Part shown: one piece after another, positions 39,544-55,821 of the stretch | How positions within the stretch are numbered: the stretch's first letter is position 1 | How the letters are laid out: each line of letters begins with the position of its first letter | NCBI GenBank assembly: GCA_946403295.1 | Contig: CAMIZL010000004.1 | Coordinates: 7,113-71,112 of the forward strand | DNA length: 64,000 nt | Reading direction: 5' to 3' | Source: an uncultured Clostridia bacterium | GTDB lineage: Bacteria > Bacillota > Clostridia > Lachnospirales > Lachnospiraceae | Made by a program: the position numbers and the translations under genes | Notes under the pieces: generated by a model | What the model was told of the DNA's origin: nothing | The model's database searches: none | What the model saw: the letters and a program-made list of their open reading frames with translations, nothing else

Positions 39544-41619
39544 ATGAAGACTTTTTTGGAATTATTGCTGAGAATGAGCGCATACGGAAGCATCGCGGTG
39601 CTTCTGGTGCTTGTGCTGCGTTTACTGTTCAAAAAGTTCCCGAAGAAGACGGTCATCCTTTTCTGGATCGTGGCTGCGATAAGGCTCGTGTGTCCCTTCA
39701 ATTTCGAGACACCCGTGAGCCTCATAAAACTCGCACCGCAAAGCGTCCGAAGCAGTCTTGAGCCTGTCGGAACAAATGATCCGCAAACAATCCTCGAAGA
39801 TATAACCCTCGGGGGAGATGCGAGTGATCCGCAAACATCCTTCGGAGGTGTGGTTTCCGAGGATAGTGCTGATCTGCGAACATCCTTCGGAGGTGTGGTT
39901 CCCGAGGATAGTGCTGATCTGCGAACATCCTTCGGAGGTGTGGTTTCCGAGGATAGTGCTGATCTGCGAACATCCTTCGGAGGTGTGGTTCCCGAGGATA
40001 GTGCTGATATGCAAACATCCCGGGGAGGTGTGGTTCTCGGGGAGGATGTGAGTAATCCACAAACATCCCTCGGAGGTGTGGTTCTCGAGGATAGTGCTGA
40101 TACACAAACATCCCGGGGAGGCGTGGTACCCGAGGATAGTGCTGATACGCAAACATCCCGGGGAGGCGTGGTTCTCGAGGATAAAGGTACGCGCGAATAC
40201 GAAACGGATGAAACGATCGGATTCGCTGTCACGGCGGTTTCCGAGGCCAACGCATCTCTTACGGGTATCATGTTCATTATATGGATCATCGGTGCTGCCG
40301 CGGTCGTTATCTATGTAACAGTCGGCTTCGTAAGAACGAACAGGCTTGTTGCGCGTCTCTTCAGACGTTCCGGCAATTATCTCGAGTCCGAACGGATCAA
40401 TACGCCGTTTGTTTGCGGCATCTTCAGTCCAAAGATCTGTGTTCCCACGTCGCTTGATATGAGTGAAAAGGATTACATGCTTCTCCATGAGCAGATACAT
40501 ATCAAAAATCATGACGCAATCGTCAAAGCGTTCGCGATTGTTGTGCTTTGCCTGCACTGGTTTAACCCGCTTGTATGGGTTGCCGTAAGGTTGTGCATGA
40601 GCGACCTCGAAATGCGCTGCGATGAGGAAGTTGTCGACATCCTCGGTGAAAGGATCAGAAAGGATTATTGCCTCTCGATCGTTAACCACGCGACTGACGA
40701 CACAAATATCCGCGTCTTTACTACGGCTTTTGCTAAGAAATCTATAAGCAGAATGGAGATCAAGATGAGGATCAAAAACCTGATAAACTATAAAAAAGTA
40801 TCAAAACTTACAACGCTCACTGTTCTTACAATAGCGCTCGCCGCAACGTTTATTCTCACGTCATGTGCAGACACTCCCGCAACCGAGGCTGCGGTTGCGG
40901 CAAACAAAAGTAACGGGGAGATCAAGATCGCGATAGGAGATACATCCGCAGCGGAAACGGGCGATACGATCGTGTATGATACAGGATCAACACAGTCCGG
41001 TTCGATTTCTGTTACGGAGGAAGTTGCGGGCGATGGCGAAACCGAGAAGACCTATATCGTAGTCAGCGATGAAAACGAGAACATTGTAAAATATGTCCGC
41101 ATCGAGAATGAAGACGGTTCGGTGGAGTACAGAAATGTTGAAACGAATGATATCGTCGGTGAAGGTGAGCTCGCTTACAGTATATCAATCAATACGACAG
41201 AAGGTGGGTTCGACGTCGTGGAAGGTGAGGATGCGGATGTAATCCTGAAATATTGCAAAGTGTATAATGACGGCATTCATGAAATTGAAAGATCAAACGG
41301 CGATAAGTTCCTTACCAGAACCTGCGAAGGTGCATATTTTGACTCGCTTGAGGAATTTAAAACCTTCTATTCCTACGATAATATCAAAAACGTCCTTGAC
41401 GGCGTGTACGAAACGGGAGATCCTCGTGTTAAGGTTGCTGCGTGGAGCCGGTTTTTAAACGAAGAGGACTGCAAGTCGGATATTGTTGAGGAGAAGAATG
41501 GCTGCTACGTCCTCACCAGAAATCTTGATAACGGAAAGATGTATTTCAGCCTGGTTTACGATTGTAAGACACACGATGTCACCAGACTTGAAAATGGAAT
41601 CCCCGATGTTGTGGGTTAA
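39544..41619 (+). CDS. M56-family (BlaR1/MecR1-like) membrane metalloprotease-fold protein with repeat insertion and non-PBP C-terminal domain
   Basis: 691 aa. Typical BlaR1 N-terminus (SAYGSIAVLLVLVLRLLFKKFPKK...FWIVAAIRLVCPF) and an HExxH motif (LLHEQIHIKNHD). A late TM helix is followed by a ~240-aa extracytoplasmic domain with no SxxK/penicillin-binding motifs. Confidence 0.8.
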   Translation: MKTFLELLLRMSAYGSIAVLLVLVLRLLFKKFPKKTVILFWIVAAIRLVCPFNFETPVSLIKLAPQSVRSSLEPVGTNDPQTILEDITLGGDASDPQTSFGGVVSEDSADLRTSFGGVVPEDSADLRTSFGGVVSEDSADLRTSFGGVVPEDSADMQTSRGGVVLGEDVSNPQTSLGGVVLEDSADTQTSRGGVVPEDSADTQTSRGGVVLEDKGTREYETDETIGFAVTAVSEANASLTGIMFIIWIIGAAAVVIYVTVGFVRTNRLVARLFRRSGNYLESERINTPFVCGIFSPKICVPTSLDMSEKDYMLLHEQIHIKNHDAIVKAFAIVVLCLHWFNPLVWVAVRLCMSDLEMRCDEEVVDILGERIRKDYCLSIVNHATDDTNIRVFTTAFAKKSISRMEIKMRIKNLINYKKVSKLTTLTVLTIALAATFILTSCADTPATEAAVAANKSNGEIKIAIGDTSAAETGDTIVYDTGSTQSGSISVTEEVAGDGETEKTYIVVSDENENIVKYVRIENEDGSVEYRNVETNDIVGEGELAYSISINTTEGGFDVVEGEDADVILKYCKVYNDGIHEIERSNGDKFLTRTCEGAYFDSLEEFKTFYSYDNIKNVLDGVYETGDPRVKVAAWSRFLNEEDCKSDIVEEKNGCYVLTRNLDNGKMYFSLVYDCKTHDVTRLENGIPDVVG
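39826..40188 (+). repeat. in-frame 45-bp tandem repeat (~8 units) inside the M56-family gene
   Basis: gatc(c/t)gc(a/g)aacatccttcggaggtgtggtt(t/c)ccgaggatagtgct units encode D(L/P/T)(R/Q)TSFGGVV(S/P)EDSA. One unit is 48 bp. Confidence 0.95.
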
Positions 41620-41705: not shown

Positions 41706-41934
41706 ATGATGTTTGAGGATGAATGAGGTTGGAAAATGGGGATGTTGAATGATGAGGGTGTTGAATGGTGAGGATGTTGAATGGTGAGGGTGTTTTGAAT
41801 GGTGGGTTCTGAATGGTGGGTGTGTTGAATGGTGGGTGTGTTGAATGGTGGATGTGCTGAATGGCGGATGTGATGAATGGCGGATGTGTTGAATGGTGGG
41901 TGTGTTGAATGGTGGATGTGTTGAATGGTGGGTG
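41706..41934. repeat. 16-bp G/T-rich minisatellite (~13 units), non-coding
   Basis: (g/a)tgtgttgaatggtgg and variants lie head to tail. Exact 16-nt spacing is verified at 41821/41837. The period is not a multiple of 3. Confidence 0.95.
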
Positions 41935-41958
41935 ATAAACAAGAGTTTGACAAACCTC

Positions 41959-42822: not shown

Positions 42823-42838
42823 TTCGATAAACAAATGG

Positions 42839-42931
42839 AAGCCTGTCAGGTGATAAACGAATAATAAGGAAGCCTGTCAGGTGATAAACGAATAATAAGG
42901 AAGCCTGCTAGGTGATAAATGAATAATAAGG
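42839..42931. repeat. 31-bp tandem repeat (3 units)
   Basis: aagcctgtcaggtgataaacgaataataagg occurs at 42839-69 and 42870-900, with a diverged third unit at 42901-31. Confidence 0.95.
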
Positions 42932-42988
42932 AGCTTTGTTTCGTGGAATAAACGGATTTAGAAGGCTGTCGTTACTTATATTCACGGC

Positions 42989-43017
42989 TTGATTAATACT
43001 TGTAAATCAAATAAAAT
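42989..43017 (+). promoter_or_regulatory. candidate promoter with embedded inverted repeat upstream of the DtxR/MntR-like gene
   Basis: TTGATT (42989-94), 17 nt, TAAAAT (43012-17). TTGATT...AATCAA arms bracket the spacer. Confidence 0.45.
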
Positions 43018-43057
43018 GGATGGGAAGGGGTTAAGTAAAAACAGTGGAGGTTGCGGT

Positions 43058-43423
43058 ATGCGTGAATCCGGAGAAATGTATTTGGAGACTATACATGTGC
43101 TTTCTAAGGAAAGGGCTGTTGTCAGGTCGATAGATGTGGCAGATCATATGAATTTTTCAAAACCATCGGTGAGCAGAGCGGTAAACAGGCTTAAGGATGA
43201 CGGCTATCTTGATATGTCTCCGGAAGGTTTTCTTACGCTCACATCGAAAGGTCTCGAGGTCGCTCAGACTATCTACGAGCGTCATGTAGTTCTTACAAAG
43301 ATTCTGGTGAAATTGGGCGTCAGTGAAGGAACGGCGGCTGAGGATGCATGCAAGATCGAGCATGACATAAGCGCCGAAACATTCGAAGCTCTCAAAAAAT
43401 ATGTAGCAGGACAAATAGATTAA
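43058..43423 (+). CDS. DtxR/MntR-family metal-dependent transcriptional regulator
   Basis: 121 aa from ATG 43058 (GGAGG 8 nt upstream). Motifs SGEMYLETIHVL, a winged-HTH region (IDVADHMNFSKPSVSRAVNRLKDDGYL) and the dimerisation helix ERHVVLTKILV...CKIEHDIS. Confidence 0.8.
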   Translation: MRESGEMYLETIHVLSKERAVVRSIDVADHMNFSKPSVSRAVNRLKDDGYLDMSPEGFLTLTSKGLEVAQTIYERHVVLTKILVKLGVSEGTAAEDACKIEHDISAETFEALKKYVAGQID

Positions 43424-43437
43424 AGGAAGTAGGTTTC

Positions 43438-44394
43438 GTGAACATTTTCTGTACTTGCTCCTCGGACGTAAAGACGCGGGGATCATATGAGGATCATATC
43501 GGAAACGCGGGACATAAGGTTGTTTCGGGGGACGCGCGCGCACTGCTCGGTGCGGACGCTTTGTTTATCTGCATAAGCGGAAAAGAAAACAGGGATGTTA
43601 AAGAAGATCTGAACCTCGCGCTTGACAGAGGTCTCCCGGTCGCTTATGTGATCGAGGACGGCGGCGTGCCCGATTCGGGACTTAGCATTCAGCTCGCTAT
43701 CGCAACGCGTATACCGGCTGAGGGCGGAAACGAAGCAGCGCCGGGATTGCCGGCCGAAAAGAACGAACGCTTCACAGAGGGCGGAAAAAACGAACGTTTT
43801 ACAACGGGCGGGGAAAACGAACGCTTCACAACGGGTGGAAAAAACGAACGCTTCACAACGGGCAAGGATAACGAGTCCGCCCAAATGACAAAGAAAGCAG
43901 TTCAAAAATGGCTCGAAACGGTGAGCGCGGGGATCGTTGCCGATAAAAAGAGGAAAAAGATAAGGACGGTTCTGGGCGCGGTTGCGATAATAGTATTGCT
44001 GGCAAGTGCGGGTGTACTTGCCACGACGCTTATGAACCGAAACGATACGGGCACATCACAGCAACCGTTAACAATACAGGAGCAGCTCGGGATCGATATT
44101 GAAACGCTTAAGAAAAGCGAGAAGATCGACCTTTCGGGAAAAGGGCTCGAAGACATTTCGTTTTTATCGGGATGCAAGGAGTGTAAGGAGCTCGACATAA
44201 GCGGTAACGCGATAAGCGATATAAGCGTTTTGAGCGAACTTGAGAACATCAGGGTCCTCAATATTTCGGGAAACAGGATCAATGACATAAACGTTCTTTT
44301 GACACTGAAAAATCTTGAGGAAGTCGATATCAGGGATAATCCGATCAGCGATTATACGGCGACATCGTTCCTCGGATGCGTTGTTATTCAATAA
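43438..44394 (+). CDS. single-pass membrane protein: N-terminal TIR-like module, 9-aa repeats, TM helix, C-terminal leucine-rich repeats
   Basis: 318 aa with a GTG start 8 nt after AAGGAAG. NIFCTCSS...ADALFICISGKENRDVKEDLNLALDRGLPVAYVIEDG parallels the TIR block of the next gene. TM helix IRTVLGAVAIIVLLASAGVLATTL. LRRs L-x2-L-x-(I/L)-S-G-N-x-I-x-D-I-x-x-L occur about four times. Confidence 0.7.
   Translation: MNIFCTCSSDVKTRGSYEDHIGNAGHKVVSGDARALLGADALFICISGKENRDVKEDLNLALDRGLPVAYVIEDGGVPDSGLSIQLAIATRIPAEGGNEAAPGLPAEKNERFTEGGKNERFTTGGENERFTTGGKNERFTTGKDNESAQMTKKAVQKWLETVSAGIVADKKRKKIRTVLGAVAIIVLLASAGVLATTLMNRNDTGTSQQPLTIQEQLGIDIETLKKSEKIDLSGKGLEDISFLSGCKECKELDISGNAISDISVLSELENIRVLNISGNRINDINVLLTLKNLEEVDIRDNPISDYTATSFLGCVVIQ
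43762..43869 (+). repeat. in-frame 27-bp tandem repeat (4 units) encoding NERFT(E/T)GG(K/E)
   Basis: aacgaacg(c/t)tt(c/t)aca(g/a)(a/c)gggxgg(a/g)aaa units start at 43762, 43789, 43816 and 43843. Confidence 0.9.
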
Positions 44395-44427
44395 ACGGGC
44401 ACAAGCACAGGCGGGAGGAAGTTGGGT

Positions 44428-46617
44428 ATGAGCAGACCTACGGCTTACAAAGGAAACGAAAAGTACATTTTTGTCAGTTATGCGCATAAGGACAGCGATG
44501 ACGTGCTACCGATCATTGAGGCGCTTCAGAGCGCATCGTATCGCGTGTGGTATGACGAGGGCATCGATCCCGGAAAAGATTGGGCGGGTGTCATCGGAAC
44601 GAACATCGAGAAGGCGGGCATCGTCCTTTTTTGCGCTTCGAAGAAGTCGGTCAAGAGGGATAACGTAAAGCGCGAGATAGCATTTGCGCATGAGAAGGGG
44701 ATACCCGTTCTCACGGTGACGATCGGGAACGTGAGCTTCCCTGCGGATCTTGAGAAGATCCTTTTCGTAAATCAGACCGTTTCGCTCAGAAGCTTTAAGA
44801 CCTACGGAGAATTCGTCGATGCGATCGCGGGTGTTTTAAGGGATGCGGGAACATATGCGACCGTGGCCGGAGCGGGCGGGGCGCCTCTCGGAAGGAAGAT
44901 CATGCTCGGCGCCAAATTAAAGCGCAGGAAGATCATCGTAAGGATCCTGGTTGCGCTCGCCGTTATTGCGGTTTTAGCTGTTGCGACATTCTTTATCGCA
45001 TTTAAGGATGTCCCCGACGTTATTGACATGGATACGCAAACAGCACGCGAAATGATAGAAGAAGCGGGCTTTGATTGTGATATAAGTAACGATTATTCCG
45101 ATACATATCCGTTCGGAAAGATATTCGCACAGAGCAGGAACGGTATCAACTTCCGTTTCATGCCCGTCATCATCAGGCAGAGTCTCGGACCCAAGGAAAA
45201 TCTGACCGATGTGCCCGACACCGTAACACATCATATCAGTGATGCGGCAACCATGCTTATCACCGCGGGCATGAAGAAATTTGAGATCTCACCCACACTC
45301 GGCACGGGCAGGGAGAATGCACATGTCGATGCGCAGAGCATACCTGCGGGACTTAGAGTGTCAAGAGACAATGTGATCGATCTTGAGGTCGCAACGGACG
45401 GTGGCGAGATCGTATTCGAGATCGCGGGCAAGTACTACGTGATCCGCGGAACCGCACCTGTAACCGTTGATGCGGATGATACGAGCAACCTAGAGCTTTA
45501 TGACGATCCTTCCGCTGTGCGCGCCGGCTCGGGTGATGATGACAAGAGCGGAACTGACGATCGCTCCACAATTGCCGATACGACATCCGGGGACGATGAG
45601 ACGGGTTCGGATGAAGCCGATGCAAACGACACGGAAGCCGAAAATGCGAATGAGACTGATAATGCAAATGACGCCGATAATGCGGATGAGGCCGATAATG
45701 CGGATGAGGCCGATGAATTGGCAGAGGGTGCATATGATAACGAAGTTGCGGAAGAAGTAGTTCCGGCTCCGACACCGACACCTACCCCTGTGCCTACGGC
45801 AACACCGACACCCACTCCCGTACCTACGGCAACACCGACACCTACTCCCGTGCCTACTGCAACGCCTACTCCCACACCTACTCCGAAGCCCACCGCAACA
45901 CCTACACCGACTCCCGTATCGGCGAAGTACAACAGCCTCGGCGGGAACAAGTGGGAGGTTTATAATCAGGCGGCCATGCAGGAGATCCATGATATGCCCA
46001 TGACTGCAGCGGAAGCCCGGTCGTACGGTGACGAATGGTTCGAAGGAGAGCACGCCAACGAAACATACAGCACTAACATGAAGATCATGGATGACTTTAC
46101 GATCAACACGGATCTGGGAGGGCTTTGGACTGTCGAAGTTCCTTCGGGAAGGACGCTTACGATCGCAAAGGGCGGTTTGCTTCAGGCGTGCGTTACTATA
46201 CAAAAGGGCGCAAAGATCGTTGTTGAATCGGGCGGCAAGCTCTGGTGTACACAGGGTGGTGAAGAGTGCATCATGAATTACGGCACCGTTGATGTCAAGT
46301 CGGGCGGACAGATCCAGAGTATGTTCGGAGGAACCTTTAACAACCTTTCGGGCGCGACACTCAATCTGAACGGAACCTTTAACTGCGGATCCGTTATGCA
46401 TAACGTGACTCCCGACGGCTCGATGGACCGTGCTGTATGGTTCGTGAACAAGGGAACCGTTAAGGGCAGCGGAAAAGCAACCATCTTCGGAGCTTTCCTC
46501 GGAAAATATACCGATGAGGAGATAGATGAATTCTTTAACTGGGGTGAGGAACAGCTCGCTGAAAGGCTCGGAAACAGCAGTATCACGACGAGTCAGAACA
46601 GGGATTATGATCCGTAA
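44428..46617 (+). CDS. single-pass membrane TIR-domain protein with extracytoplasmic PASTA-like modules, PT-rich linker and Gly-rich C-terminal domain
   Basis: 729 aa from ATG 44428 (GGAGG 9 nt upstream). TIR_2-like block ([41 protein letters not shown]...[33 protein letters not shown]). TM helix [29 protein letters not shown]-like [21 protein letters not shown] and [21 protein letters not shown]. Then a (PTPTPxPTAT)n linker. Confidence 0.85.
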
Positions 46618-46636
46618 CAGACTGTACGCACAAAGA

Positions 46637-46702
46637 CGGATAAGCACAACACTACAGTATACACAACGCCGGATAAGCACAACACTACAGTATGCACAAC
46701 GC
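46637..46702. repeat. 33-bp tandem duplication (2 units) just after the TIR-PASTA stop codon
   Basis: cggataagcacaacactacagtat(a/g)cacaacgc occurs at 46637-69 and 46670-702. Confidence 0.95.
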
Positions 46703-46707
46703 TTTTC

Positions 46708-46771
46708 CTGCCACGTGTATTTTTCCAAAAACGCTGACGCCGAATTGTTTTTGGGAAAACACACGGTCGCG
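46708..46771. repeat. dispersed ~65-bp hairpin element (copy B)
   Basis: ctgccacgtgtatttttccaaaaacgctgacgccgaattgtttttgggaaaacacacggtcgcg is ~90% identical to 28458-28522. Confidence 0.9.
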
Positions 46772-46797
46772 GAAAAGCTCGTCAACAATTTGGAAGA

Positions 46798-48441
46798 GTG
46801 AAGGAAAAAGAAACGTTGAAGAAACATTGTATTCCCCTTGTCCTGGGAGTTACGGGACACAGGGACATCACTCCTGATGACGCCAGACTCGCCCGGGATG
46901 TCGTGAAAAAAGAGATCAAGAGGCTCGCGGCACTTGCTCCCGACACTCCTTTGGAGCTGCTCTCGAGCCTTGCGGCGGGGGCGGACAGGATCGTTGCAGA
47001 GGTGGCTCTTGAAGAAGGGATACCTCTCACTGTCATCCTCCCCATGAAGTCGGAGCTTTACGAGGAGGACTTTAACCCCGAAGAGATCACGGAGTACAGG
47101 GAGCTTCTCTCACGCGCATCAAACGTCTTCGTTGCGCCCGAGATCGAGGATCACAAAGAAGGTCGCGACTTCCTCTACCGTCAGGCCGGGATCTACGTAG
47201 CATCGCATTCACATGTGCTCATAGCGCTCTGGGACGGTTCGGAGCCGAAACGCGGGGGATGCGGAACCGCTGAGACAGTGGACATCAAGCTCAAGGGAAG
47301 CCTCGAACTCAGCAAGGCACCGGGCTTTTCTCCCGAGAAAGGCTACGTGATACATATCCCTGTAAGAAGAGGTGGAGTGGAACCTTTCCCCGAAAGGACC
47401 ATCACACCGAACTATCTCGGAGATGAGAAGACCTTTAACAGAGTTATCGAAAGAACTGAAGAGTTTAACAGGAGCGCCATGAAGCTCGCCACGAAGGGAG
47501 AAATCGCATCGCAGGCTTCACTCGCCGGGTCGGAGCATGATACCGGGAACGAGCGCGCTTTCGAGCGTATGTCGAGGGTCGGATGCGCAGCGGATCTCAG
47601 CAGTGTGAAGGGAGCCGGGAGACACAGGATCACGGTCGGGTTGATCGCCGTGATGGCGACGCTCCTTACGATGTCGTTCCTTCTTTATGATGAAGCAAAC
47701 ATTCATTACCTGATCGTTGGCTGCGGCGTGATGATCGTGGGTATATACGTTCTGAACCTGCTTGCCCGGAAGCGTGACTTCCATCGCAAGTATCTTGAGT
47801 ACAGACTGCTCGCGGAGGCGCTTCGTGTTCAGAGCGCACTTATCGAGGCAGGTGTTTATGCCGAGACCTTCGAGATGCTCTCGTGGGCACAGAAGCTCGA
47901 GACACCGTGGATCAGCCGTGCGCTGGCTGCTATCTGCATCTACGATCCCGATTCGCTCACGCTGACCGGTACGACTGTCAACTGGATCAACGGACAGCTC
48001 TCGTATCATAAGCGAGCTGTGGAACGCGCCAAGGCTCAGTCGAAAGCGAACGACAGGATAGTGCACGTCGCTGTCGCGATCACCGTGGCAGTGTACATGG
48101 CGGCACTCGTGTTCGAGATCTTCTGGGCAGGAACCTTCGGAGGAAGCGCGAAGCTAAAAGAAGTCGACGCCGAGTTCGTAAGGACCATCTTCAAGCTTGC
48201 CACCGGGTCGCTCTCGGCGATCTCGCTCTTTGCCGGAAGTTATTACGGCAAGCTCTCGCTTGACCAGTGGGCGCGCGATTCCGAAAGAATGGTGCTGCTC
48301 TATGAGGAAGCAAACGCAGCCAAGGAGAACTGCCGCGACCTCGGAGAGCTTTGTGTGAGCCTCGCAAGGGAGGAGTTGTCGGAGAACATGCGGTGGTACG
48401 CGTACCAGAGCGTAAACAGTCCCGACACGCCTATCAGTTGA
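46798..48441 (+). CDS. SLOG/LOG-like Rossmann domain fused to four TM helices (two SLATT-like 2TM units)
   Basis: 547 aa. The start is uncertain: GTG 46798, or TTG 46816, which has better spacing from GAAGGAAA. N-terminal motifs LGVTGHRD, AAGADRIVAEVALEEGIPL, LIALWDG and RGGCGTAETV. TM pairs are ITVGLIAVMATLLTMSFLLY with YLIVGCGVMIVGIYVLNLL, and VHVAVAITVAVYMAALVFEIF with FKLATGSLSAISLFAGSYY. Each pair is followed by an amphipathic helix. Confidence 0.7.
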   Translation: MKEKETLKKHCIPLVLGVTGHRDITPDDARLARDVVKKEIKRLAALAPDTPLELLSSLAAGADRIVAEVALEEGIPLTVILPMKSELYEEDFNPEEITEYRELLSRASNVFVAPEIEDHKEGRDFLYRQAGIYVASHSHVLIALWDGSEPKRGGCGTAETVDIKLKGSLELSKAPGFSPEKGYVIHIPVRRGGVEPFPERTITPNYLGDEKTFNRVIERTEEFNRSAMKLATKGEIASQASLAGSEHDTGNERAFERMSRVGCAADLSSVKGAGRHRITVGLIAVMATLLTMSFLLYDEANIHYLIVGCGVMIVGIYVLNLLARKRDFHRKYLEYRLLAEALRVQSALIEAGVYAETFEMLSWAQKLETPWISRALAAICIYDPDSLTLTGTTVNWINGQLSYHKRAVERAKAQSKANDRIVHVAVAITVAVYMAALVFEIFWAGTFGGSAKLKEVDAEFVRTIFKLATGSLSAISLFAGSYYGKLSLDQWARDSERMVLLYEEANAAKENCRDLGELCVSLAREELSENMRWYAYQSVNSPDTPIS

Positions 48442-48720
48442 ACGGCGCGGTGTATCCTTTTGTACTAATGAACAAATTGTTGGATTTGTTGATATTTTAC
48501 GCAAAATTGTGTAACCGGTAGGATTTTGATAACAATATGGTTAATTCAAATGGTTTTAAACGCAAAGATAGAGACAGTAGATGTGGGTATCGTTTTACAA
48601 CAAAACGTTGAGGCACGTACAATTATTCTACAGTAATTTTACTTGTAGAAAGCAAATTCAACAGCTAGAATCATGATAGATACGCAGCCCGGGAACAGTC
48701 CCGGGGAAAGGGGAATTGTC

Positions 48721-49611
48721 ATGAAGAGAACAGTTTATTTAACGCTTATGCTGATCGGGCTTATGGCAGCCTGCATTCTTACGGGATGCAAATCCGGGAC
48801 AAAGCTCGAAAACCTTGTCGTTGACAAAGAGAATAATATTATTTCATGTGAGTATGAGGGCGTTAAACGCGAAATCATCGTAAGTCTGCCCGAAACGGCG
48901 AAGAATGCTCCGCTTATCGTCATGCTTCATGGGGCCGGGGATTCGGCAGACAACTTCCTAAAATCCTCGGGGTTTGACAAAGAAGCGAACGAAAAGGGCT
49001 ATGCTGTCTGCTTTATCTCCGGTTCGATCAATTCGAAGGCAGGAAGAAATTCGCGCAGCTGGAACTATGGAAGGATCGATACCGACTATGATGATGTTTC
49101 GTTCATAAAGGAAGTGGTAAAGTACGTCTGCGATGAGTATTCGCTTGACGATGATGATGTCTACTGCGCGGGATTCTCGAACGGAGGTTTCATGAACTTC
49201 AGGCTCGCGCTTGAGGCTCAGGACGTGTTTAAGGCCTGTGTCAGTGTCGGGGGCGATCTCTGTAAGACTCTCTGGAACAAGAAACCCGAAAAGAATGATG
49301 TGAGTTTTATGGCCGTGGCCGGCGAAAAGGACGAGTCGGTTCCAAAAAACGCTGATGGGACGGCCAAGACTTCACTTGATCCCGCGATCGAGGACGTTAT
49401 AGAGTATCTTGCCGATTCGAACGGGCTCGCAAAGCAGTCCGAGAGCGAAATCGGAAAGGGGTCGACCATAGTTAAATACGGTGCGGACGGTGACAATGAT
49501 GCCGTATGGTATGTGGTTGTTAAGGATGGGAAGCACGGATGGCCGACAGTGAAACTTAATGATTTCAGTATGAATCAGTTGGTACTGGAGTTCTTCGCAA
49601 GTATTAAATGA
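48721..49611 (+). CDS. lipoprotein alpha/beta-hydrolase (esterase/PHB-depolymerase-like)
   Basis: 296 aa from ATG 48721. Lipobox (AACILTGC), oxyanion region (IVMLHGAG) and nucleophile elbow (GFSNGG). Confidence 0.8.
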   Translation: MKRTVYLTLMLIGLMAACILTGCKSGTKLENLVVDKENNIISCEYEGVKREIIVSLPETAKNAPLIVMLHGAGDSADNFLKSSGFDKEANEKGYAVCFISGSINSKAGRNSRSWNYGRIDTDYDDVSFIKEVVKYVCDEYSLDDDDVYCAGFSNGGFMNFRLALEAQDVFKACVSVGGDLCKTLWNKKPEKNDVSFMAVAGEKDESVPKNADGTAKTSLDPAIEDVIEYLADSNGLAKQSESEIGKGSTIVKYGADGDNDAVWYVVVKDGKHGWPTVKLNDFSMNQLVLEFFASIK

Positions 49612-49976: not shown

Positions 49977-52900
49977 ATGAAACAGTTTATTAAACGACTT
50001 GTTGTTTTTGCTGTTGCTTTTACACTTGTCATCGGCTTATTGCCCGGTAACAGTGCGGAAGCAGCTTCGAAGAAGAGCAAGAAGAAGACGATCGTCGTAA
50101 CAACACAGGAAGAACTTGTTGCTGCACTTAAGAAGTACGGTTCTTCAAATTCAAAGGTAAAGATCAAGATTGAAACTACCGAAGCAAGTACTTTTACACT
50201 CAGCGCAAAGTACAGCTCGGACAGTATTCAGATCGTAGTTGATGCTCCCAATGCCACCATTAAGAGTAAGGCAAAGGTTTCGAGCATTACCATCAATGAA
50301 GCAAAGTCCGTTAAGGAATATGCTTCGGGTAACAAGATCACCGTCAACGATGAGAAGCTTACCTTTACCGCCATGGAGAATGCTTCGGTTGAGAAGCTGA
50401 CGATCGCCTCCGAGACAGGTACCGTTAAGGTTGTCAACAACGGTGGGATCGAGAAAGTTGCCGTTAAGAGCGAAGTTAAGGTCGACTTAACACAGAACGG
50501 TGAAATGGGACGTGTTTATGTCGGTGCAGCCGCTGACATAAGCGTTAGCGGAACGTCCGAGGAGAGCCTTAAGGTTACGGTTCAGAAGGATGCAGTCGGT
50601 GCGTCGGTTAAGTCCGAAGTTCCGGTCAGTGTTAACGCCTATGCTGACGTTGATCTTACACTCGAGAAGGGTGCCGAGAGCTCAAAGGTCACAATGAAGG
50701 AAGAGACCGCGGGCGTTAAGCTTGAGAACAAAACTGAAGAGACGATATCCGTAAAGGATACCGAAGGAAATACCCAAAAGGTTGAAACGGGCGAGGAGAT
50801 CACCTCGGACAATTATGTCGGAAAGCAGGATGAGACAACCGAAAAGCCCCCTGTTGTCGAAGATGAAAAGAAGGAAGAAGAGAAGAAGGAAGAGGAAAAG
50901 AAGCCTGAGCCTACAAATGCTCCTTTGCCCACACCCGATCCCGAACCCTACGTTCCTTATGTAAGTCCCGAAGAACAGTTGCAAGACAAGCTTACAGCAG
51001 CAGGAAAATCGCAGAACGACGGAGAAGCATGGCTTACCCAAAACATCACGCTCAAAAAGGATCTTTATGTTCCTTCCGGCGTGGGTCTTGTCCTTGACGG
51101 ATATACGCTCAATGCAGATTCAAACAAGATAGTACTTGGGCCTGATGCGAGGATCGTATTGTTCCCCGGAAGTAAGCTTATTGTCGGAAATGACCCGTTT
51201 ATTTATGAAGATGACGGCAAAGGATTCAATCATGTTGAATTCCAGCTTGAGTTTGATGCGTCTATACAGATCGGAGATTACACCATCGTCGGTATTGGCA
51301 GTGATTTTGATCCCGTTGCGACAAGGATAATCATTGAAACAAGTCTCAGGCATGAAATGGTTCGACAGTATCCGGAGGAAGAGGTCAGTGATTCAAATCC
51401 TGAAAGTGAATTAATTTTTACGGAAAGAAATGTAAGATTCGATTTCATGGGTGAATCGTTCGATATTTTCACCGAATCCGGAACCTATGAAGGATTTGCC
51501 GGGGTTTTCGGTGGAGACAGAGCATATTGGGTCGATATGGACGGAGACTACAGGCCGCAGAACGGAGAAACGCTCACAAGCCTTGAGATCAATCCTCTTT
51601 CAAATGTTCTTTATGACGAGAGAAAAGTGACGTTTAAGGGTAAAACGATTTATAGTGCAACTGTCGGAGTAGAGGACTGGCTTAATGTTTATCTTGATCC
51701 CGATATGGTTTGGTCCGCATTTAAAGCGGTCGAGCAGAAAAGGGCAGTTCCCGACGTTATCGAAGTACCTGAAAAAGAAGGGGATCCTCTGGTAGTTACC
51801 ATACCTGGGCCGATAACACTGACGAAGAATGTTTATGTTCGCAAAGGTGCTACGCTTATCGCGGATGAGATAAATTATGCCCTGTCAGACCCTGTTCAAG
51901 GACCCGTGGGCGGAGATCTTTTGAATGCTCCCGGAATCAGTGTGAGAGGAACTCTCAAAATAAACAGGATCACTTCCACCGGAAGCATTGATGAGAATCA
52001 GGAACTCATTAAGATGCAGGGTGCGGACAGTATTCTTGAGATGGGTGGCAAAATCTATAAGATCGATACAAATGATCAGAGATTTACAGATGATCCGAAT
52101 GCTACCGCTTATTCGTATTTCTGCTGGAATATCCCCAAGCAGTATTATGGGTATCAGTTATACACATGGGAGTTTGAGGAAGGATTTAAAATCCTTTGTT
52201 CCAATGATGACGGAGAGAATTTCGTTGAAGTTGTAAAACATCCTTTCGAGGCAGAGCTTGTGACACCCGATACCCTACTTGTAACCAAGGATTCGGATCA
52301 GGTTTACAGCCTTATACAGAGCACATCAAGATGGATGGACTGGTCGGATACGGATGAATTTAAAGATGAGATCTATGCCGGCAAAACACTTGATGAGAAA
52401 TATGCTATAGCAGCCGGTGACAGACTTGACTTCACCTCGGCAACTCTCTCGGCGCAGGATAAAAATGGGAATAAAGTGCCTCTGGTAATAGAGGAATTTG
52501 TGAGAGATGAGGAAGGCGAATTAACAGATGAACGCACATGGCTGGAGGTCTGCGGAATGACTCTGACGGCAGATCCCGAAATCACGGTTACATTGGCATC
52601 CGGTGCCGAGATGAGAATCAGACGCGGATCGAACCTGATCATGGAATCAATAAGTGCCGATAACGCAGGAAAATTTATTCTCGGAAGCACTCTTAGGAAA
52701 AATGATAAGGGCGAAAATGAGATAGACAGATCCGGAAGGATCACTGTTGATTGGGGCGGAAAGGTCACAATCGGAAATTATGTTTTTGCAACACAGAATT
52801 ATCAAAATGATTTTGATAGCGGTAATTTCGGACTTTCGCTTGATGTAGTTACGGATGGAAAGGGCAGTCCTGTGGTCAGGATGCAGATTCCCGAGAATAT

Positions 52901-53819
52901 CATCATAACCACACTTGACGGCAGCTCTGTAACAGCAGAAGGTCTTAATGCATTAGGAATGAAGATTGAGATCTCTAACAAAGAACAAATGGACGAGAAG
53001 GACGAGATCAAACGAAACGGTATATTCCCGTCGATCAGTCTCGGAAATGATCGCTTACTGTTCGTTACAAGAGACGGAGGACAGTTCGCAGAAGGAAAAG
53101 TCACCTTCGCGAACTCAAGCACAGATAACGGAGAATTTGTTGCGGGATCGATCGAAGACCTGAAAGCAATCAGCCTCTACATTAAGGGCATTAACGGTGA
53201 AGCAGGAAGAGGTTATCCTGACGATAAAGGCATAACCATCTCTTATGTATCGGATAGTGACAAAGTTAGTTTTGATGCCATTACACTTGATCTGATGGGT
53301 AAGATTGTATTTAGCGACAATATTACAGAGATCGGCCTTGCTAATCGATCCAAAGTGACAGTTTCGATGGAAGTAAAGAGCGGATGCAGGCTGCAGGTCG
53401 GGAGTGATTGTTATCTGGGAACCTCAAAGGTCGACGATACAGTGATCTACGGAAATCTCTCGATTTATGATAGAGGCGTGTTCAGATCTCAGATGGATCA
53501 TGGGCTCGTGATCGCCAGCGGTGCTTCGTTCCATATCGGGAATGGTCGTTTTGAGTGCGAATGCGTAAGATACCCTGTCGAAGGTCAATCGGAGACTTAC
53601 AGTTATGTGTTCGGGTTCGCTAATAACAGTGATAATTTAACCTTAAATGGTCAGGGCGGAATCTTTGTATTTGTTGAATATAAAGACGGTGCTCCGGAAT
53701 TTACCGATGATGAGTTTAATACTCTTTTAAATCATGTCCGAGGAGAAGCTCGCGAAAAACTATCGGTTTATAAGTACACTGAACCGGAACAGCCCGCAGC
53801 GGAGGCACCCAGAACGTGA
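49977..53819 (+). CDS. very large secreted protein of unknown function
   Basis: 1280 aa with RBS AAAGGAGG and a signal peptide (RLVVFAVAFTLVIGLLPGNSAEA). Then a Lys/Glu and Pro-rich spacer (EKKEEEKKEEEKKPEPTNAPLPTPDPEP). I recognise no catalytic motif, and the region is visibly A+T-richer than neighbouring housekeeping genes. Confidence 0.75.
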   Translation: MKQFIKRLVVFAVAFTLVIGLLPGNSAEAASKKSKKKTIVVTTQEELVAALKKYGSSNSKVKIKIETTEASTFTLSAKYSSDSIQIVVDAPNATIKSKAKVSSITINEAKSVKEYASGNKITVNDEKLTFTAMENASVEKLTIASETGTVKVVNNGGIEKVAVKSEVKVDLTQNGEMGRVYVGAAADISVSGTSEESLKVTVQKDAVGASVKSEVPVSVNAYADVDLTLEKGAESSKVTMKEETAGVKLENKTEETISVKDTEGNTQKVETGEEITSDNYVGKQDETTEKPPVVEDEKKEEEKKEEEKKPEPTNAPLPTPDPEPYVPYVSPEEQLQDKLTAAGKSQNDGEAWLTQNITLKKDLYVPSGVGLVLDGYTLNADSNKIVLGPDARIVLFPGSKLIVGNDPFIYEDDGKGFNHVEFQLEFDASIQIGDYTIVGIGSDFDPVATRIIIETSLRHEMVRQYPEEEVSDSNPESELIFTERNVRFDFMGESFDIFTESGTYEGFAGVFGGDRAYWVDMDGDYRPQNGETLTSLEINPLSNVLYDERKVTFKGKTIYSATVGVEDWLNVYLDPDMVWSAFKAVEQKRAVPDVIEVPEKEGDPLVVTIPGPITLTKNVYVRKGATLIADEINYALSDPVQGPVGGDLLNAPGISVRGTLKINRITSTGSIDENQELIKMQGADSILEMGGKIYKIDTNDQRFTDDPNATAYSYFCWNIPKQYYGYQLYTWEFEEGFKILCSNDDGENFVEVVKHPFEAELVTPDTLLVTKDSDQVYSLIQSTSRWMDWSDTDEFKDEIYAGKTLDEKYAIAAGDRLDFTSATLSAQDKNGNKVPLVIEEFVRDEEGELTDERTWLEVCGMTLTADPEITVTLASGAEMRIRRGSNLIMESISADNAGKFILGSTLRKNDKGENEIDRSGRITVDWGGKVTIGNYVFATQNYQNDFDSGNFGLSLDVVTDGKGSPVVRMQIPENIIITTLDGSSVTAEGLNALGMKIEISNKEQMDEKDEIKRNGIFPSISLGNDRLLFVTRDGGQFAEGKVTFANSSTDNGEFVAGSIEDLKAISLYIKGINGEAGRGYPDDKGITISYVSDSDKVSFDAITLDLMGKIVFSDNITEIGLANRSKVTVSMEVKSGCRLQVGSDCYLGTSKVDDTVIYGNLSIYDRGVFRSQMDHGLVIASGASFHIGNGRFECECVRYPVEGQSETYSYVFGFANNSDNLTLNGQGGIFVFVEYKDGAPEFTDDEFNTLLNHVRGEAREKLSVYKYTEPEQPAAEAPRT

Positions 53820-54063: not shown

Positions 54064-55821
54064 ATGGACAAGACCGAAGATATTGCAAAAATCAAAAGAT
54101 ATGCCGGACTGGTTCTGGTTTATATTGCATTTATTCTCATAAACATTCTGTTCAATCGGGTGTGCGGGTTATTGGAGATCCCGCTTTATCTTGATTGCAT
54201 AGGAACGCTTCTTGCGGCCGCGCTTGGGGGATTCTTCCCGGGTATTATCGTCGGCTATGCGACAAATCTCATAAACGCGTCGGGAAGTCCCGAAACGGCT
54301 TTTTATTCGTTTATCAGTGTGTTGATAGCGGTAGCGGGAGCCTTTTTCGCCTACAAAGGATATTTTAAAAAGTTCGGAAAAACGATCCTTACCATCCCTG
54401 TTTTTGCATGGCTCGGAGGAGGGCTCGGATCGCTCCTTACGTACCTGTTATACGGATTCGGAATGGGAGAGGGTATTTCGGCTCCTTTTGCGGCAGCACT
54501 TCTTGAAAAAGGAACGCTAAATGTTTTCTGGGCTCAATTGATCTCTGATTTTTCGATAGATCTTATCGACAAAGCCGTTACGGTTTTGATCGTATTCGCA
54601 TTGCTTCACGTTATCCCGAAGAAGATCTCGGAATCGCTCGAATTAACGTCATGGCAGCAAAAACCGCTTGACAGCAACGAAATCAAAGCGACACGGGTCA
54701 CATCGGTTCCTCGCATGGCCTTAAGGACCAAGATCATTCTTATAATCGGAACCGTAATGGTGTTTGTAGCTTTTACGACATGCGTCATAAGCTATGTTCT
54801 TTATGATCAGTTCGCTGTGGAGCAGCTGGAAGCTTCGAGAAACGGAGTCGAGATGGGGATGAACGAGATAACTCTCTATGGCGTGAGATTCATCACAAAG
54901 ATTGCGGCATTGTTCATCGGATTCTTTATCGTTGTGCTTGCTTTTTGCTTATGGTATATGAGATATCATCTCACTTATCCCATAAACGCCATGACATATG
55001 CTACCCGGCAATTTGCTTACAACAGCGACAAAGCTATAGAAGAGGATGTAAAAAGGTTTGAAGCCCTGAAGATCTCGACGGGTGATGAGATAGAAACGCT
55101 CTATGATGCAGTCAAAAAGACAATGGCCGATACCGTCAAATACTTTGAGGATATGCACGAGAAGGACGTACAGATCGAAAAGATGCAGAACGGGCTCATA
55201 TACATACTCGCGGATCTAGTCGAGAGCCGTGATAAATGTACGGGCGATCATGTCAAGAAAACGGCTGCTTACGTGAGGCTGATACTCGAACTGTTGCGCG
55301 AGAGCCCCAAATACAAAGATATCGTTACGGATGAATATATCGAAGATGTATGCAACTGTGCACCTCTTCACGATATAGGCAAGATAAAAGTCTCCGACCT
55401 TATCCTCAATAAGCCCGCAAGGCTATCGGATGACGAATTTACACAGATGCAGAAACATACGGTGGCGGGAAAGAAGATCATCGAGGGTGCGATGGATCTT
55501 ACCGGAGGATCTTCGGGATATCTAAGAGAAGCGCTTAACCTTGCGACATATCATCACGAAAAGTGGGACGGCACGGGTTACCCCGAGGGACTCAAAGGAG
55601 AAGAAATACCGCTGTCCGCAAGGATCATGGCTGTTTCGGACGTGTTCGACGCACTTCTTTCGGAGAGAAGCTACAAGAAGCCGTTTACACATGAGGAGGC
55701 CATGAACATCCTAAAAGAAGGTTCGGGTAAGAATTTCGATCCCGAAATAATCAGGCTCTTCTTCGAAAACGAAGCAAAGGTCAGGGAAGTGGAAGAAGCC
55801 AACAGAAAACTTGTCTCTTAA
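54064..55821 (+). CDS. membrane-bound HD-GYP domain phosphodiesterase (c-di-GMP signalling)
   Basis: 585 aa. Multi-pass membrane N-terminal half, then HD-GYP motifs (HVKKTAAYV, PLHDIGKIKV, HHEKWDGTGYPEGL, VSDVFDAL). Confidence 0.85.
   Translation: MDKTEDIAKIKRYAGLVLVYIAFILINILFNRVCGLLEIPLYLDCIGTLLAAALGGFFPGIIVGYATNLINASGSPETAFYSFISVLIAVAGAFFAYKGYFKKFGKTILTIPVFAWLGGGLGSLLTYLLYGFGMGEGISAPFAAALLEKGTLNVFWAQLISDFSIDLIDKAVTVLIVFALLHVIPKKISESLELTSWQQKPLDSNEIKATRVTSVPRMALRTKIILIIGTVMVFVAFTTCVISYVLYDQFAVEQLEASRNGVEMGMNEITLYGVRFITKIAALFIGFFIVVLAFCLWYMRYHLTYPINAMTYATRQFAYNSDKAIEEDVKRFEALKISTGDEIETLYDAVKKTMADTVKYFEDMHEKDVQIEKMQNGLIYILADLVESRDKCTGDHVKKTAAYVRLILELLRESPKYKDIVTDEYIEDVCNCAPLHDIGKIKVSDLILNKPARLSDDEFTQMQKHTVAGKKIIEGAMDLTGGSSGYLREALNLATYHHEKWDGTGYPEGLKGEEIPLSARIMAVSDVFDALLSERSYKKPFTHEEAMNILKEGSGKNFDPEIIRLFFENEAKVREVEEANRKLVS

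Follow-up and report, generated by a model that had tools for sequence, protein, structure and literature searches.

A SLOG-domain protein with four predicted transmembrane helices and its genomic coupling to TIR-like membrane proteins and HD-RyR in gut and rumen Clostridia

Where a gene for a putative nucleotide sensor with membrane helices lies downstream of TIR genes, the question arises whether its product receives a signal from them and what it does upon receiving it. Such a gene (the target) was analysed in a stretch of 64,000 nucleotides (the window) from an uncultured Clostridia bacterium of the Lachnospiraceae (assembly GCA_946403295.1, contig CAMIZL010000004.1, positions 7,113 to 71,112 of the forward strand). 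A first-pass annotation had described the protein as a SLOG-like domain fused to two SLATT-like units of two transmembrane (TM) helices each. The target open reading frame (ORF) is real and conserved. In the genomes, its family goes together, mostly within one tight operon, with genes of TIR or TIR-like membrane proteins and/or of HD-RyR, a protein with HD-phosphohydrolase-like motifs and a RyR repeat domain. With some reserve, the target is considered a probable sensor-effector, embedded in the membrane, of a Thoeris-like system in which TIR proteins signal by nucleotides. The gene and the parts of its product are as follows (positions within the window).

46798..48441, + strand: target gene, 547 aa, GTG start (ORF list, more than 200 full-length homologues, model)
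46831..47421, + strand: SLOG (YpsA/DprA/LOG-like) Rossmannoid domain, residues 12-208, with the motifs GVTGHR (17-22), AxGAD (59-63), LP (81-82), YRQ (127-129), LALWDG (141-147) and GGCGTAE (153-159) (Foldseek against PDB and BFVD, Pfam in relatives, invariant columns)
47584..47847, + strand: membrane unit 1, residues 263-350, DUF4231/SLATT-like, with pre-TM helix, TM1, LYDE in a short outer loop (295-299), TM2 and the polar helix HRKYLEYRxLAExLRVQ (329-345) (Pfam, TM analysis, conservation)
47974..48327, + strand: membrane unit 2, residues 393-510, family-specific, with a long helix carrying WIxxQxxYH, TM3, an outer loop of ~20 residues, TM4 (KxxxGxxSA...YYGKLS) and a trailing helix (hhalign, Pfam, profile search)

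The sensor domain and the membrane module

Among 5.8 billion protein clusters, 212 relatives of the target were found, all unnamed and mostly of full length (about 500-640 aa). Their hosts were Lachnospiraceae, Oscillospiraceae and other Clostridia. A relative was encoded in 539 of 185,579 species genomes, nearly all of rumen or gut Clostridia, the best match (95% identical) being found in a Lachnospiraceae metagenome-assembled genome from goat omasum. Since the ATG start of close relatives was aligned with a TTG at 46816, the true length of the target may be 541 aa. The family alignment comprised 37 sequences with an identity span of 30-85%, in which G17, G20, G61, D63, P82, R128, Q129, Y133, W145 and G156 were invariant in the SLOG region, and LYDE (295-299), R336/E340/R343/Q345, Q400/Y403/H404, K466, G470 and Y482 in the membrane region. 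An AlphaFold2 model built on this alignment reached a pLDDT of 88.9 and a pTM of 0.88.

The N-terminal domain was modelled as a beta-alpha Rossmann-like fold, with the motif positions consistent with the model strands E14-20 and E140-145. The three N-terminal motifs on which the SLOG assignment had first been based were all located (LGVTGHRD at residues 16-23, AAGADRIVAEVA at 59-70 and RGGCGTAETV at 152-161), and their columns invariant across the 37 sequences speak against chance. When the model was compared with PDB by Foldseek, YpsA (2nx2, E=1.2e-4, TMt 0.63) was the top match, followed by ShosA (8zva), DprA (3uqz) and LOG (1wek, 1rcu, 5zi9). Comparison with the viral library (BFVD) gave DprA-like, YspA/cpYpsA SLOG and DUF2493 proteins (E down to 3e-7, TMt 0.64-0.78). 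Among the relatives, Pfam YAcAr was matched by 12 of 37 (best E=3.8e-4) and DprA by 5 of 37. Because of these structural matches in both libraries and the family-level Pfam matches, the assignment of the predicted fold to SLOG is solid, and the earlier claim held. A PDB sequence search with the target protein alone gave no match; a match of the family profile to KtrA (32 residues, E=0.027) was judged spurious. No metabolic Rossmann family was matched by the N-terminal domain, and no transporter family by the TM region, in Pfam, NCBIfam and PDB sequence searches.

In the GGCGTAE motif, G156 was invariant, and C155, T157 and E159 were kept in 34, 33 and 29 of the 37 sequences, respectively. E159 occupies the position of the LOG-type catalytic Glu; the remaining 8 have Ala, Ser, Thr or Asp there. 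As Glu is present in only 29 of 37, against full invariance of D63, R128, Q129 and the Gly-rich loop, a ligand sensor is favoured over an N-glycosidase.

For the membrane module, four hydrophobic segments were found as two hairpins (TM1 278-296, TM2 305-323, TM3 421-439 and a weaker TM4 at ~463-481), in agreement with the long helices of the model and with the arrangement first proposed. By the distribution of Lys and Arg, the SLOG domain, the inter-hairpin segment and the C-terminus were all placed in the cytoplasm. In the model, each unit consists of a helix of ~50 residues entering the membrane (into TM1 or TM3), a return TM helix and a further helix. The two conserved amphipathic helices of the first-pass annotation both exist in the model (H328-350 and H485-508), although neither fits that description in full. 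Helix 329-345 is very well conserved (column mean 0.79), yet its hydrophobic moment of 0.17, reached by 78% of shuffles, is not that of an amphipathic helix; helix 485-504 is only moderately amphipathic (moment 0.38, reached by 9.5% of shuffles), with a lower conservation of 0.54.

Of the view that both hairpins are SLATT-like, only the part on the first one (with its following helix) was supported, as DUF4231/SLATT-like at the level of the family: Pfam DUF4231 (SLATT clan) was matched by 21 of the 37 relatives (best E=1.3e-6), while NCBIfam SLATT_1 and SLATT_3 gave E~0.17 at best on the target. The hairpin is fused to SLOG and has TIR or TIR-like genes nearby at 25/38 to 31/46 well-flanked loci (see below), which is an association of SLATT type. 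For unit 2, Pfam searches in 10 relatives at E<=10 gave only noise, with no SLATT or transporter family, and a profile search over 5.8 billion proteins returned only the target family; the sole hint of SLATT was a weak SLATT_4 match in P0109 (E=0.0095). No homology between units 1 and 2 was detectable by hhalign (probability 0.2%), by which an internal duplication of the two hairpins was rejected. Foldseek of the TM module against PDB and the viral library yielded nothing meaningful: TM-scores were very low in the ABC, SUR and TRPM rows, of which ABC and SUR were dismissed (TM-scores <=0.16, root-mean-square deviation above 30 A).

Standalone 4-TM proteins of 312-314 aa were also found, which cover target residues 264-546 at ~41% identity and lack SLOG. 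The 4-TM block is thus a mobile module and occurs apart from SLOG as well. One of these proteins (P0116) scored above the DUF4231 cut-off (25.2 bits). The genes of such proteins, e.g. P0115 (L014:8001-8939), lie in unrelated neighbourhoods with no TIR or HD-RyR gene nearby.

Gene neighbourhood and the TIR partners

The neighbourhood census was made on the 80 loci closest to the query in reference genomes, by using home-made hidden Markov models (HMMs) and simple gene calls. Of 46 well-flanked loci, TIR genes were present in 31, HD-RyR in 33, both in 25 and neither in 7. When the TIR-like profiles were broadened, TIR or TIR-like genes were found in 25 of 38 well-flanked loci (about two thirds), and at least one partner, TIR-like or HD-RyR, in 32 of 38, as compared with 17 of 499 genes outside the predicted operons. 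An HD-RyR gene was present in 58-72% of the 38-46 well-flanked loci, usually in a tight operon with the target, and the median gap between target and upstream gene across the family was about 2.5 nucleotides. A functional link between target and TIR genes is supported by these conserved neighbourhoods, more strongly than the window alone could show.

The canonical operon order was a TIR-like protein of ~285 aa, a TIR-LRR protein of ~390 aa, an LRR protein of ~900-1,300 aa, an HD-RyR of ~680 aa and the target. The minimal form consisted of HD-RyR and target. In the clade of the window, the form was TIR-like-LRR, TIR-PASTA and target, a reduced variant without HD-RyR. The two partners in the window are as follows.

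44422..46617, + strand: partner 1, 731 aa, TIR-PASTA protein, with cytoplasmic TIR (16-117), TM (175-193), two PASTA domains (~196-330), linkers and a C-terminal ectodomain of ~220 aa (Pfam TIR_2 E=2.3e-17 and PASTA E=2.7e-12; TM; Glu column)
43438..44394, + strand: partner 2, 318 aa, TIR-like-LRR protein, with a shortened TIR-like domain (~1-100), four GGKNERFTT repeats, TM (177-195) and extracytoplasmic LRR (hhalign; Pfam LRR_4 E=1.4e-11; TM)

HD-RyR, the commonest partner, is a protein of ~580-700 aa (L005:5335-7062, L008:5998-7980, L010:6201-7967 and L012:6092-7834). Its N-terminal part carries H..HD..H..D, that is HD-phosphohydrolase-like motifs (RDHxxHS, LFHDVGYP, LLHN, LCDELQxW), and was not recognised by Pfam; its C-terminal domain matched animal ryanodine-receptor repeats at E~1e-30. 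RyR repeat domains were recently shown to bind adenine nucleotides, ADP and ATP analogues.

As for the TIR partners, both neighbours in the window had been called TIR genes. Partner 1 was confirmed by Pfam and keeps Glu at the catalytic position (in REIAFA), so that a TIR gene with the catalytic Glu, as in Thoeris-type systems, adjoins the target. Partner 2 proved only divergent and TIR-like: its N-terminal domain was related to the TIR family by profile-profile comparison only (hhalign probability 94.5%, E=8e-8), has Asp in place of the catalytic Glu and lacks the BB-loop segment. Because a single TM helix follows the N-terminal domain in both proteins, the LRR and PASTA domains are placed outside the cell. 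Across the family, a single TM just after the TIR domain was found in 72 of 84 TIR partners, and the catalytic Glu was kept in 41 of 43 long TIR proteins, whereas Ala was present in 10 of 14 short ones; usually only one TIR partner per locus keeps it. In the large LRR proteins, too, the N-terminal domain is TIR-like, though divergent, and a TM follows (hhalign 97.5%; SLOG-domain controls below 1%), so that canonical loci would encode three proteins of the form TIR(-like)-TM-ectodomain. Judged by domain order, the TIR partners appear to be built like surface receptors, with cytoplasmic TIR and extracytoplasmic LRR or PASTA. The window TIR was matched by the PADLOC and NCBIfam Thoeris models only weakly for ThsB (E at least 4e-4), and by ThcB4 at 23.6 bits (cut-off 220) over the TIR domain only.

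Several further observations were made on these partners. The linkers of partner 1 (window 45637-46617) are acidic, ADNANE-like, and Pro/Thr-rich, with DNA repeats of 18, 30 and 12 nucleotides, and its C-terminal ectodomain had no family match. The four GGKNERFTT units of partner 2, cytoplasmic and lying between the TIR-like domain and the TM, are encoded by a 27-nucleotide tandem repeat (43752-43863, 4.1 copies). L038:4117-7941 and ~20 similar genes encode internalin-like LRR proteins of about 890-1,356 aa with the TM at about 125-138. L063 and L064 carry a fusion of TIR with an ORF of about 1,860-1,895 aa.

Between partner 1 and the target lies a spacer, for which co-transcription had been doubted.

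46618..46797, + strand: spacer, 180 nucleotides, with a 33-nucleotide direct repeat (2.2 copies, 46629-46702) and a hairpin

Its length and repeat-filled nature were as first described, with both direct and inverted repeats found. The hairpin is formed by a 32-nucleotide imperfect inverted repeat (arms 46701-46732 and 46747-46778; minimum free energy z = -2.3) and is not followed by a run of U. A scan of 46618-46797 for consensus promoters and terminators was negative, as was an Rfam search of the whole window. A role of the spacer as a known RNA element, promoter or terminator was rejected; although stable, the hairpin lacks the U-run, and its left arm is part of a strain-specific sequence. 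L016, the 95%-identical relative, has an esterase paralogue at the position of the spacer, with homology resuming at window position 46724. The doubt about co-transcription therefore concerns this strain and did not extend to the family, given the median gap stated above.

Other features of the window were noted in the same analysis. The lipoprotein-like esterase gene downstream of the target (48673-49611) is duplicated in L016 (9007-9900 and 11856-12746), with one copy on each side of the target, and the upstream copy takes the place held in the window by the repeat-bearing spacer. Next, at 49977-53819, a protein of 1,280 aa is encoded that has an N-terminal signal-like helix, no Pfam match and no TIR-like N-terminal domain; its counterparts (1,078-1,373 aa) occupy the same downstream position in the clade relatives L001, L016 and L018. 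Two genes downstream of the esterase, an HD_5/HD protein (54064-55821, 585 aa) keeps its position in L001, probably by coincidence; it was considered as an HD-RyR and found unrelated by HMM. Upstream, a BlaR1-type M56 peptidase gene (39544-41619, Pfam E=2e-43) contains a 45-nucleotide tandem repeat (39825-40183, 7.9 copies, 87% matches) which encodes 15-aa units like SFGGVVxEDSADxxT. Intergenic arrays were found downstream of it (41735-41936, 16-nucleotide unit, 11.8 copies) and just upstream of the gene of a DtxR-like repressor (42989-43423) (42837-42932, 31-nucleotide unit, 3.1 copies, 95% matches). Short intergenic repeats, the 33-nucleotide repeat of the spacer included, seem to be habitual in the source genome.

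The proposed mechanism and its alternatives

For the probable sensor-effector function stated at the outset, the following course is proposed. A cue at the envelope would engage the LRR or PASTA ectodomains, by which the cytoplasmic TIR domains would be brought together; in the window, the 731-aa protein has the catalytic Glu, and the 318-aa protein would, by its looks, be a non-catalytic co-receptor. The active TIR would convert NAD+ to a messenger derived from ADP-ribose, which may be bound in the SLOG pocket (GxxGH, GAD, YRQ and GCGTAE motifs). The change would be passed along the long helices from SLOG to the membrane, the 4-TM module would oligomerise or open, and ion leakage and depolarisation would lead to growth arrest or death. 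In most relatives, unlike in the window, HD-RyR may bind and/or hydrolyse the messenger and so set a threshold. Ligand binding by SLOG and membrane permeabilisation, as first suggested, are inferred here, in line with the logic of Thoeris, where type I uses SLOG as the sensor of 3' cyclic ADP-ribose (3'cADPR) and type VII a SLATT effector responsive to cADPR. According to the papers citing Burroughs et al. 2015, SLATT was predicted as a nucleotide-responsive pore-forming effector.

The concept of combining TIR, SLOG and SLATT is not new, being already known from Thoeris types III and VII. ThsA of type I (SIR2-SLOG) resembles the target in having SLOG beside TIR genes and receives the TIR-made 3'cADPR by its SLOG domain, but its output is a soluble SIR2 NADase and not a membrane module, the PADLOC models of ThsA did not match the target, and the TIR partners of the target, unlike those of ThsA, are built like membrane receptors. 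Type III (multiple thcB) likewise combines several TIR-domain genes with one SLOG effector, which by description carries a NucS nuclease and has no abortive phenotype, in contrast to the 4-TM output of the target. In type VII, a TIR enzyme, with canonical cADPR as the signal, is paired with ThsH, a membrane effector of SLATT type thought to breach the membrane upon ligand binding. By description, ThsH is set apart from the target by its annotation as SLATT only, with ligand pockets predicted between SLATT protomers, whereas the target has a separate fused SLOG domain and an extra 2-TM unit. The SLATT/DUF4231 effectors of CBASS and related nucleotide-centric systems, as far as the citing papers describe them, share with the target the 2-TM hairpin, flanking helices and the association with nucleotide-generating enzymes and SLOG sensors; the target differs in its sub-threshold DUF4231 score, in the second, unrelated 2-TM unit and in the 4-TM block that travels as a whole.

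Outside bacteria, TRPM2 and TRPM4 also have a cytoplasmic SLOG-type domain (MHR1/2) fused to a channel module, and TRPM2 is gated by ADP-ribose (ADPR). This is an analogy and not a membership: the 6-TM TRP fold has no relation to the 4 TM of the target, and the weak full-length Foldseek matches of the target to TRPM4 and TRPM2 (E=0.05-0.13) were not significant. Toll-like receptors share with the partner proteins the extracytoplasmic LRR, single TM and cytoplasmic TIR, as a comparison of shared domains only; in the partners, TIR lies at the N-terminus (reversed), and the bacterial TIR is probably an enzyme and not an adaptor.

A number of results weigh against the sensor-effector function. On the target itself, Pfam YAcAr (residues 18-80, E=0.058, 13.7 bits) and DUF4231 (residues 275-345, E=5e-4, 20.8 bits) stayed below their cut-offs of 28.2 and 24.7 bits, respectively. 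By hhalign, Pfam and profile search, the second hairpin has no known relatives, and the 4-TM block also occurs in the 312-314-aa proteins without SLOG. Neither the target nor a relative from a canonical operon was recognised by PADLOC and NCBIfam models, the only matches, both marginal, being '4TM effector' (E=0.009) and SepX/GlpR (E=7e-4) on one relative; the target family, HD-RyR and the TIR-like partners were all unrecognised by curated defence or NCBI models. In the window, the surroundings are core genes (infB, a DHH protein, truB, rpsO and the DtxR-like repressor) and not a defence island, no HD-RyR homologue was found by HMM, and the 180-nucleotide spacer is atypical for the family. The limits of the census noted above count here as well, as do the phylogenetic non-independence of its 80 loci and the 6-7 well-flanked loci with neither TIR nor HD-RyR. 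Since a TIR gene is missing near the minimal loci (HD-RyR and target), the ligand may have a source other than TIR. A relative of the target was found on just 1 of 2.9 million viral contigs, by which a phage or prophage origin of the family was also rejected.

The use of such a device may be physiological instead of anti-phage, with the target as a nucleotide-gated ion channel in housekeeping envelope sensing, where PASTA and LRR would report the status of the cell wall or the presence of neighbours and the TIR messenger would tune ion flux without killing; this is conceivable, and we rate it as rather unlikely. It would agree with the core context (DHH, truB, rpsO, DtxR-like repressor), which relatives retain to as little as about 50% identity, with the lack of defence genes flanking the target in the window and with the near absence of the family from viral contigs. 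The sensing domains are extracytoplasmic, unlike those of known Thoeris sensors, and the PASTA segment of partner 1 matches PknB-type PASTA kinases; PASTA domains in Ser/Thr kinases are sensors of peptidoglycan fragments. Against these stand the wide variation of gene content and ectodomains (LRR of 290 to 1,900 aa, PASTA), as an arms race predicts, the patchy distribution (539 of 185,579 species genomes) and an AbiEii gene adjoining one locus. Moreover, modules that combine TIR with SLOG and SLATT-type parts are so far known or predicted in conflict systems only.

If the SLOG domain were instead an enzyme, a membrane-anchored LOG- or YpsA-like protein cleaving an N-glycosidic bond, it would make or destroy the signal, and the 4-TM module would be an anchor or docking site. 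LOG-clade SLOGs are N-glycosidases, and some SLOGs of conflict systems are predicted to generate or degrade signals; the target retains an intact GGxGTxE-like motif, R128 is invariant, and the minimal loci have no separate signal generator nearby. However, 8 of the 37 relatives have another residue (Ala, Ser, Thr or Asp) instead of the motif Glu, the closest structures are YpsA, ShosA and DprA and not LOG enzymes, and the membrane module is about as conserved (0.55 and 0.49) as the SLOG core (0.62). Together with this conservation, the invariant LYDE, R336/E340/R343/Q345 and Q400/Y403/H404 are more than an anchor needs, and the enzyme is held to be improbable.

That the TIR adjacency in the window is meaningless, with the target an independently transcribed relic, inactive or repurposed after a rearrangement, might be read from the 180-nucleotide spacer with its strain-specific repeats and stable hairpin, the missing HD-RyR and the esterase paralogue inserted at the spacer position of the nearest relative, but it is very improbable, as the ORF is intact and keeps every invariant residue of the family, relatives of 82-84% and about 50% identity share the order TIR-like-LRR, TIR-PASTA and target, and the spacer has no terminator-like site.

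Meaning for gut Clostridia and for the protein family

The target family, which is abundant in rumen microbiomes, is entirely without annotation. In literature searches, no SLOG-4TM effector, no TIR receptor-type proteins with LRR or PASTA ectodomains and no bacterial HD-RyR tied to TIR were found described. To our knowledge, the TIR proteins of every Thoeris-type system characterised so far are soluble and detect phage components within the cell. In contrast, the TIR partners of this SLOG-membrane effector are receptor-like, and most loci pair a competent TIR with degenerate TIR-like proteins.

Beyond the sensor-effector function of the target, a wider pathway in gut and rumen Clostridia is put forward tentatively, with more doubt than confidence. 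In such an outside-in pathway, single-pass TIR proteins in the style of Toll-like receptors, one catalytic with one or two catalytically degenerate co-receptors, would use a messenger made from NAD+ to reach a 4-TM channel gated by SLOG, and HD-RyR, an HD phosphohydrolase fused to a RyR repeat domain, would act as a messenger-binding regulator. Phage adsorption, cell-wall damage or a competitor would be the candidate cues.

If the proposed mechanism holds, TIR signalling driven by receptors across the membrane would be seen in bacteria for the first time, and there would be a simple model of a nucleotide-gated effector of SLATT type with a dedicated sensor domain. The HD-RyR partner ties the RyR repeat domain to TIR and SLOG, which bears on the origin of the animal calcium channels gated by cADPR or ADPR; under the wider pathway, one operon would unite TIR, RyR repeat domain and SLOG-gated channel, which are parts of the animal cADPR-RyR and ADPR-TRPM2 axes. 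The gene set is conserved in gut Clostridia and undescribed, hinting at outside-in, immune-type signalling in bacteria.

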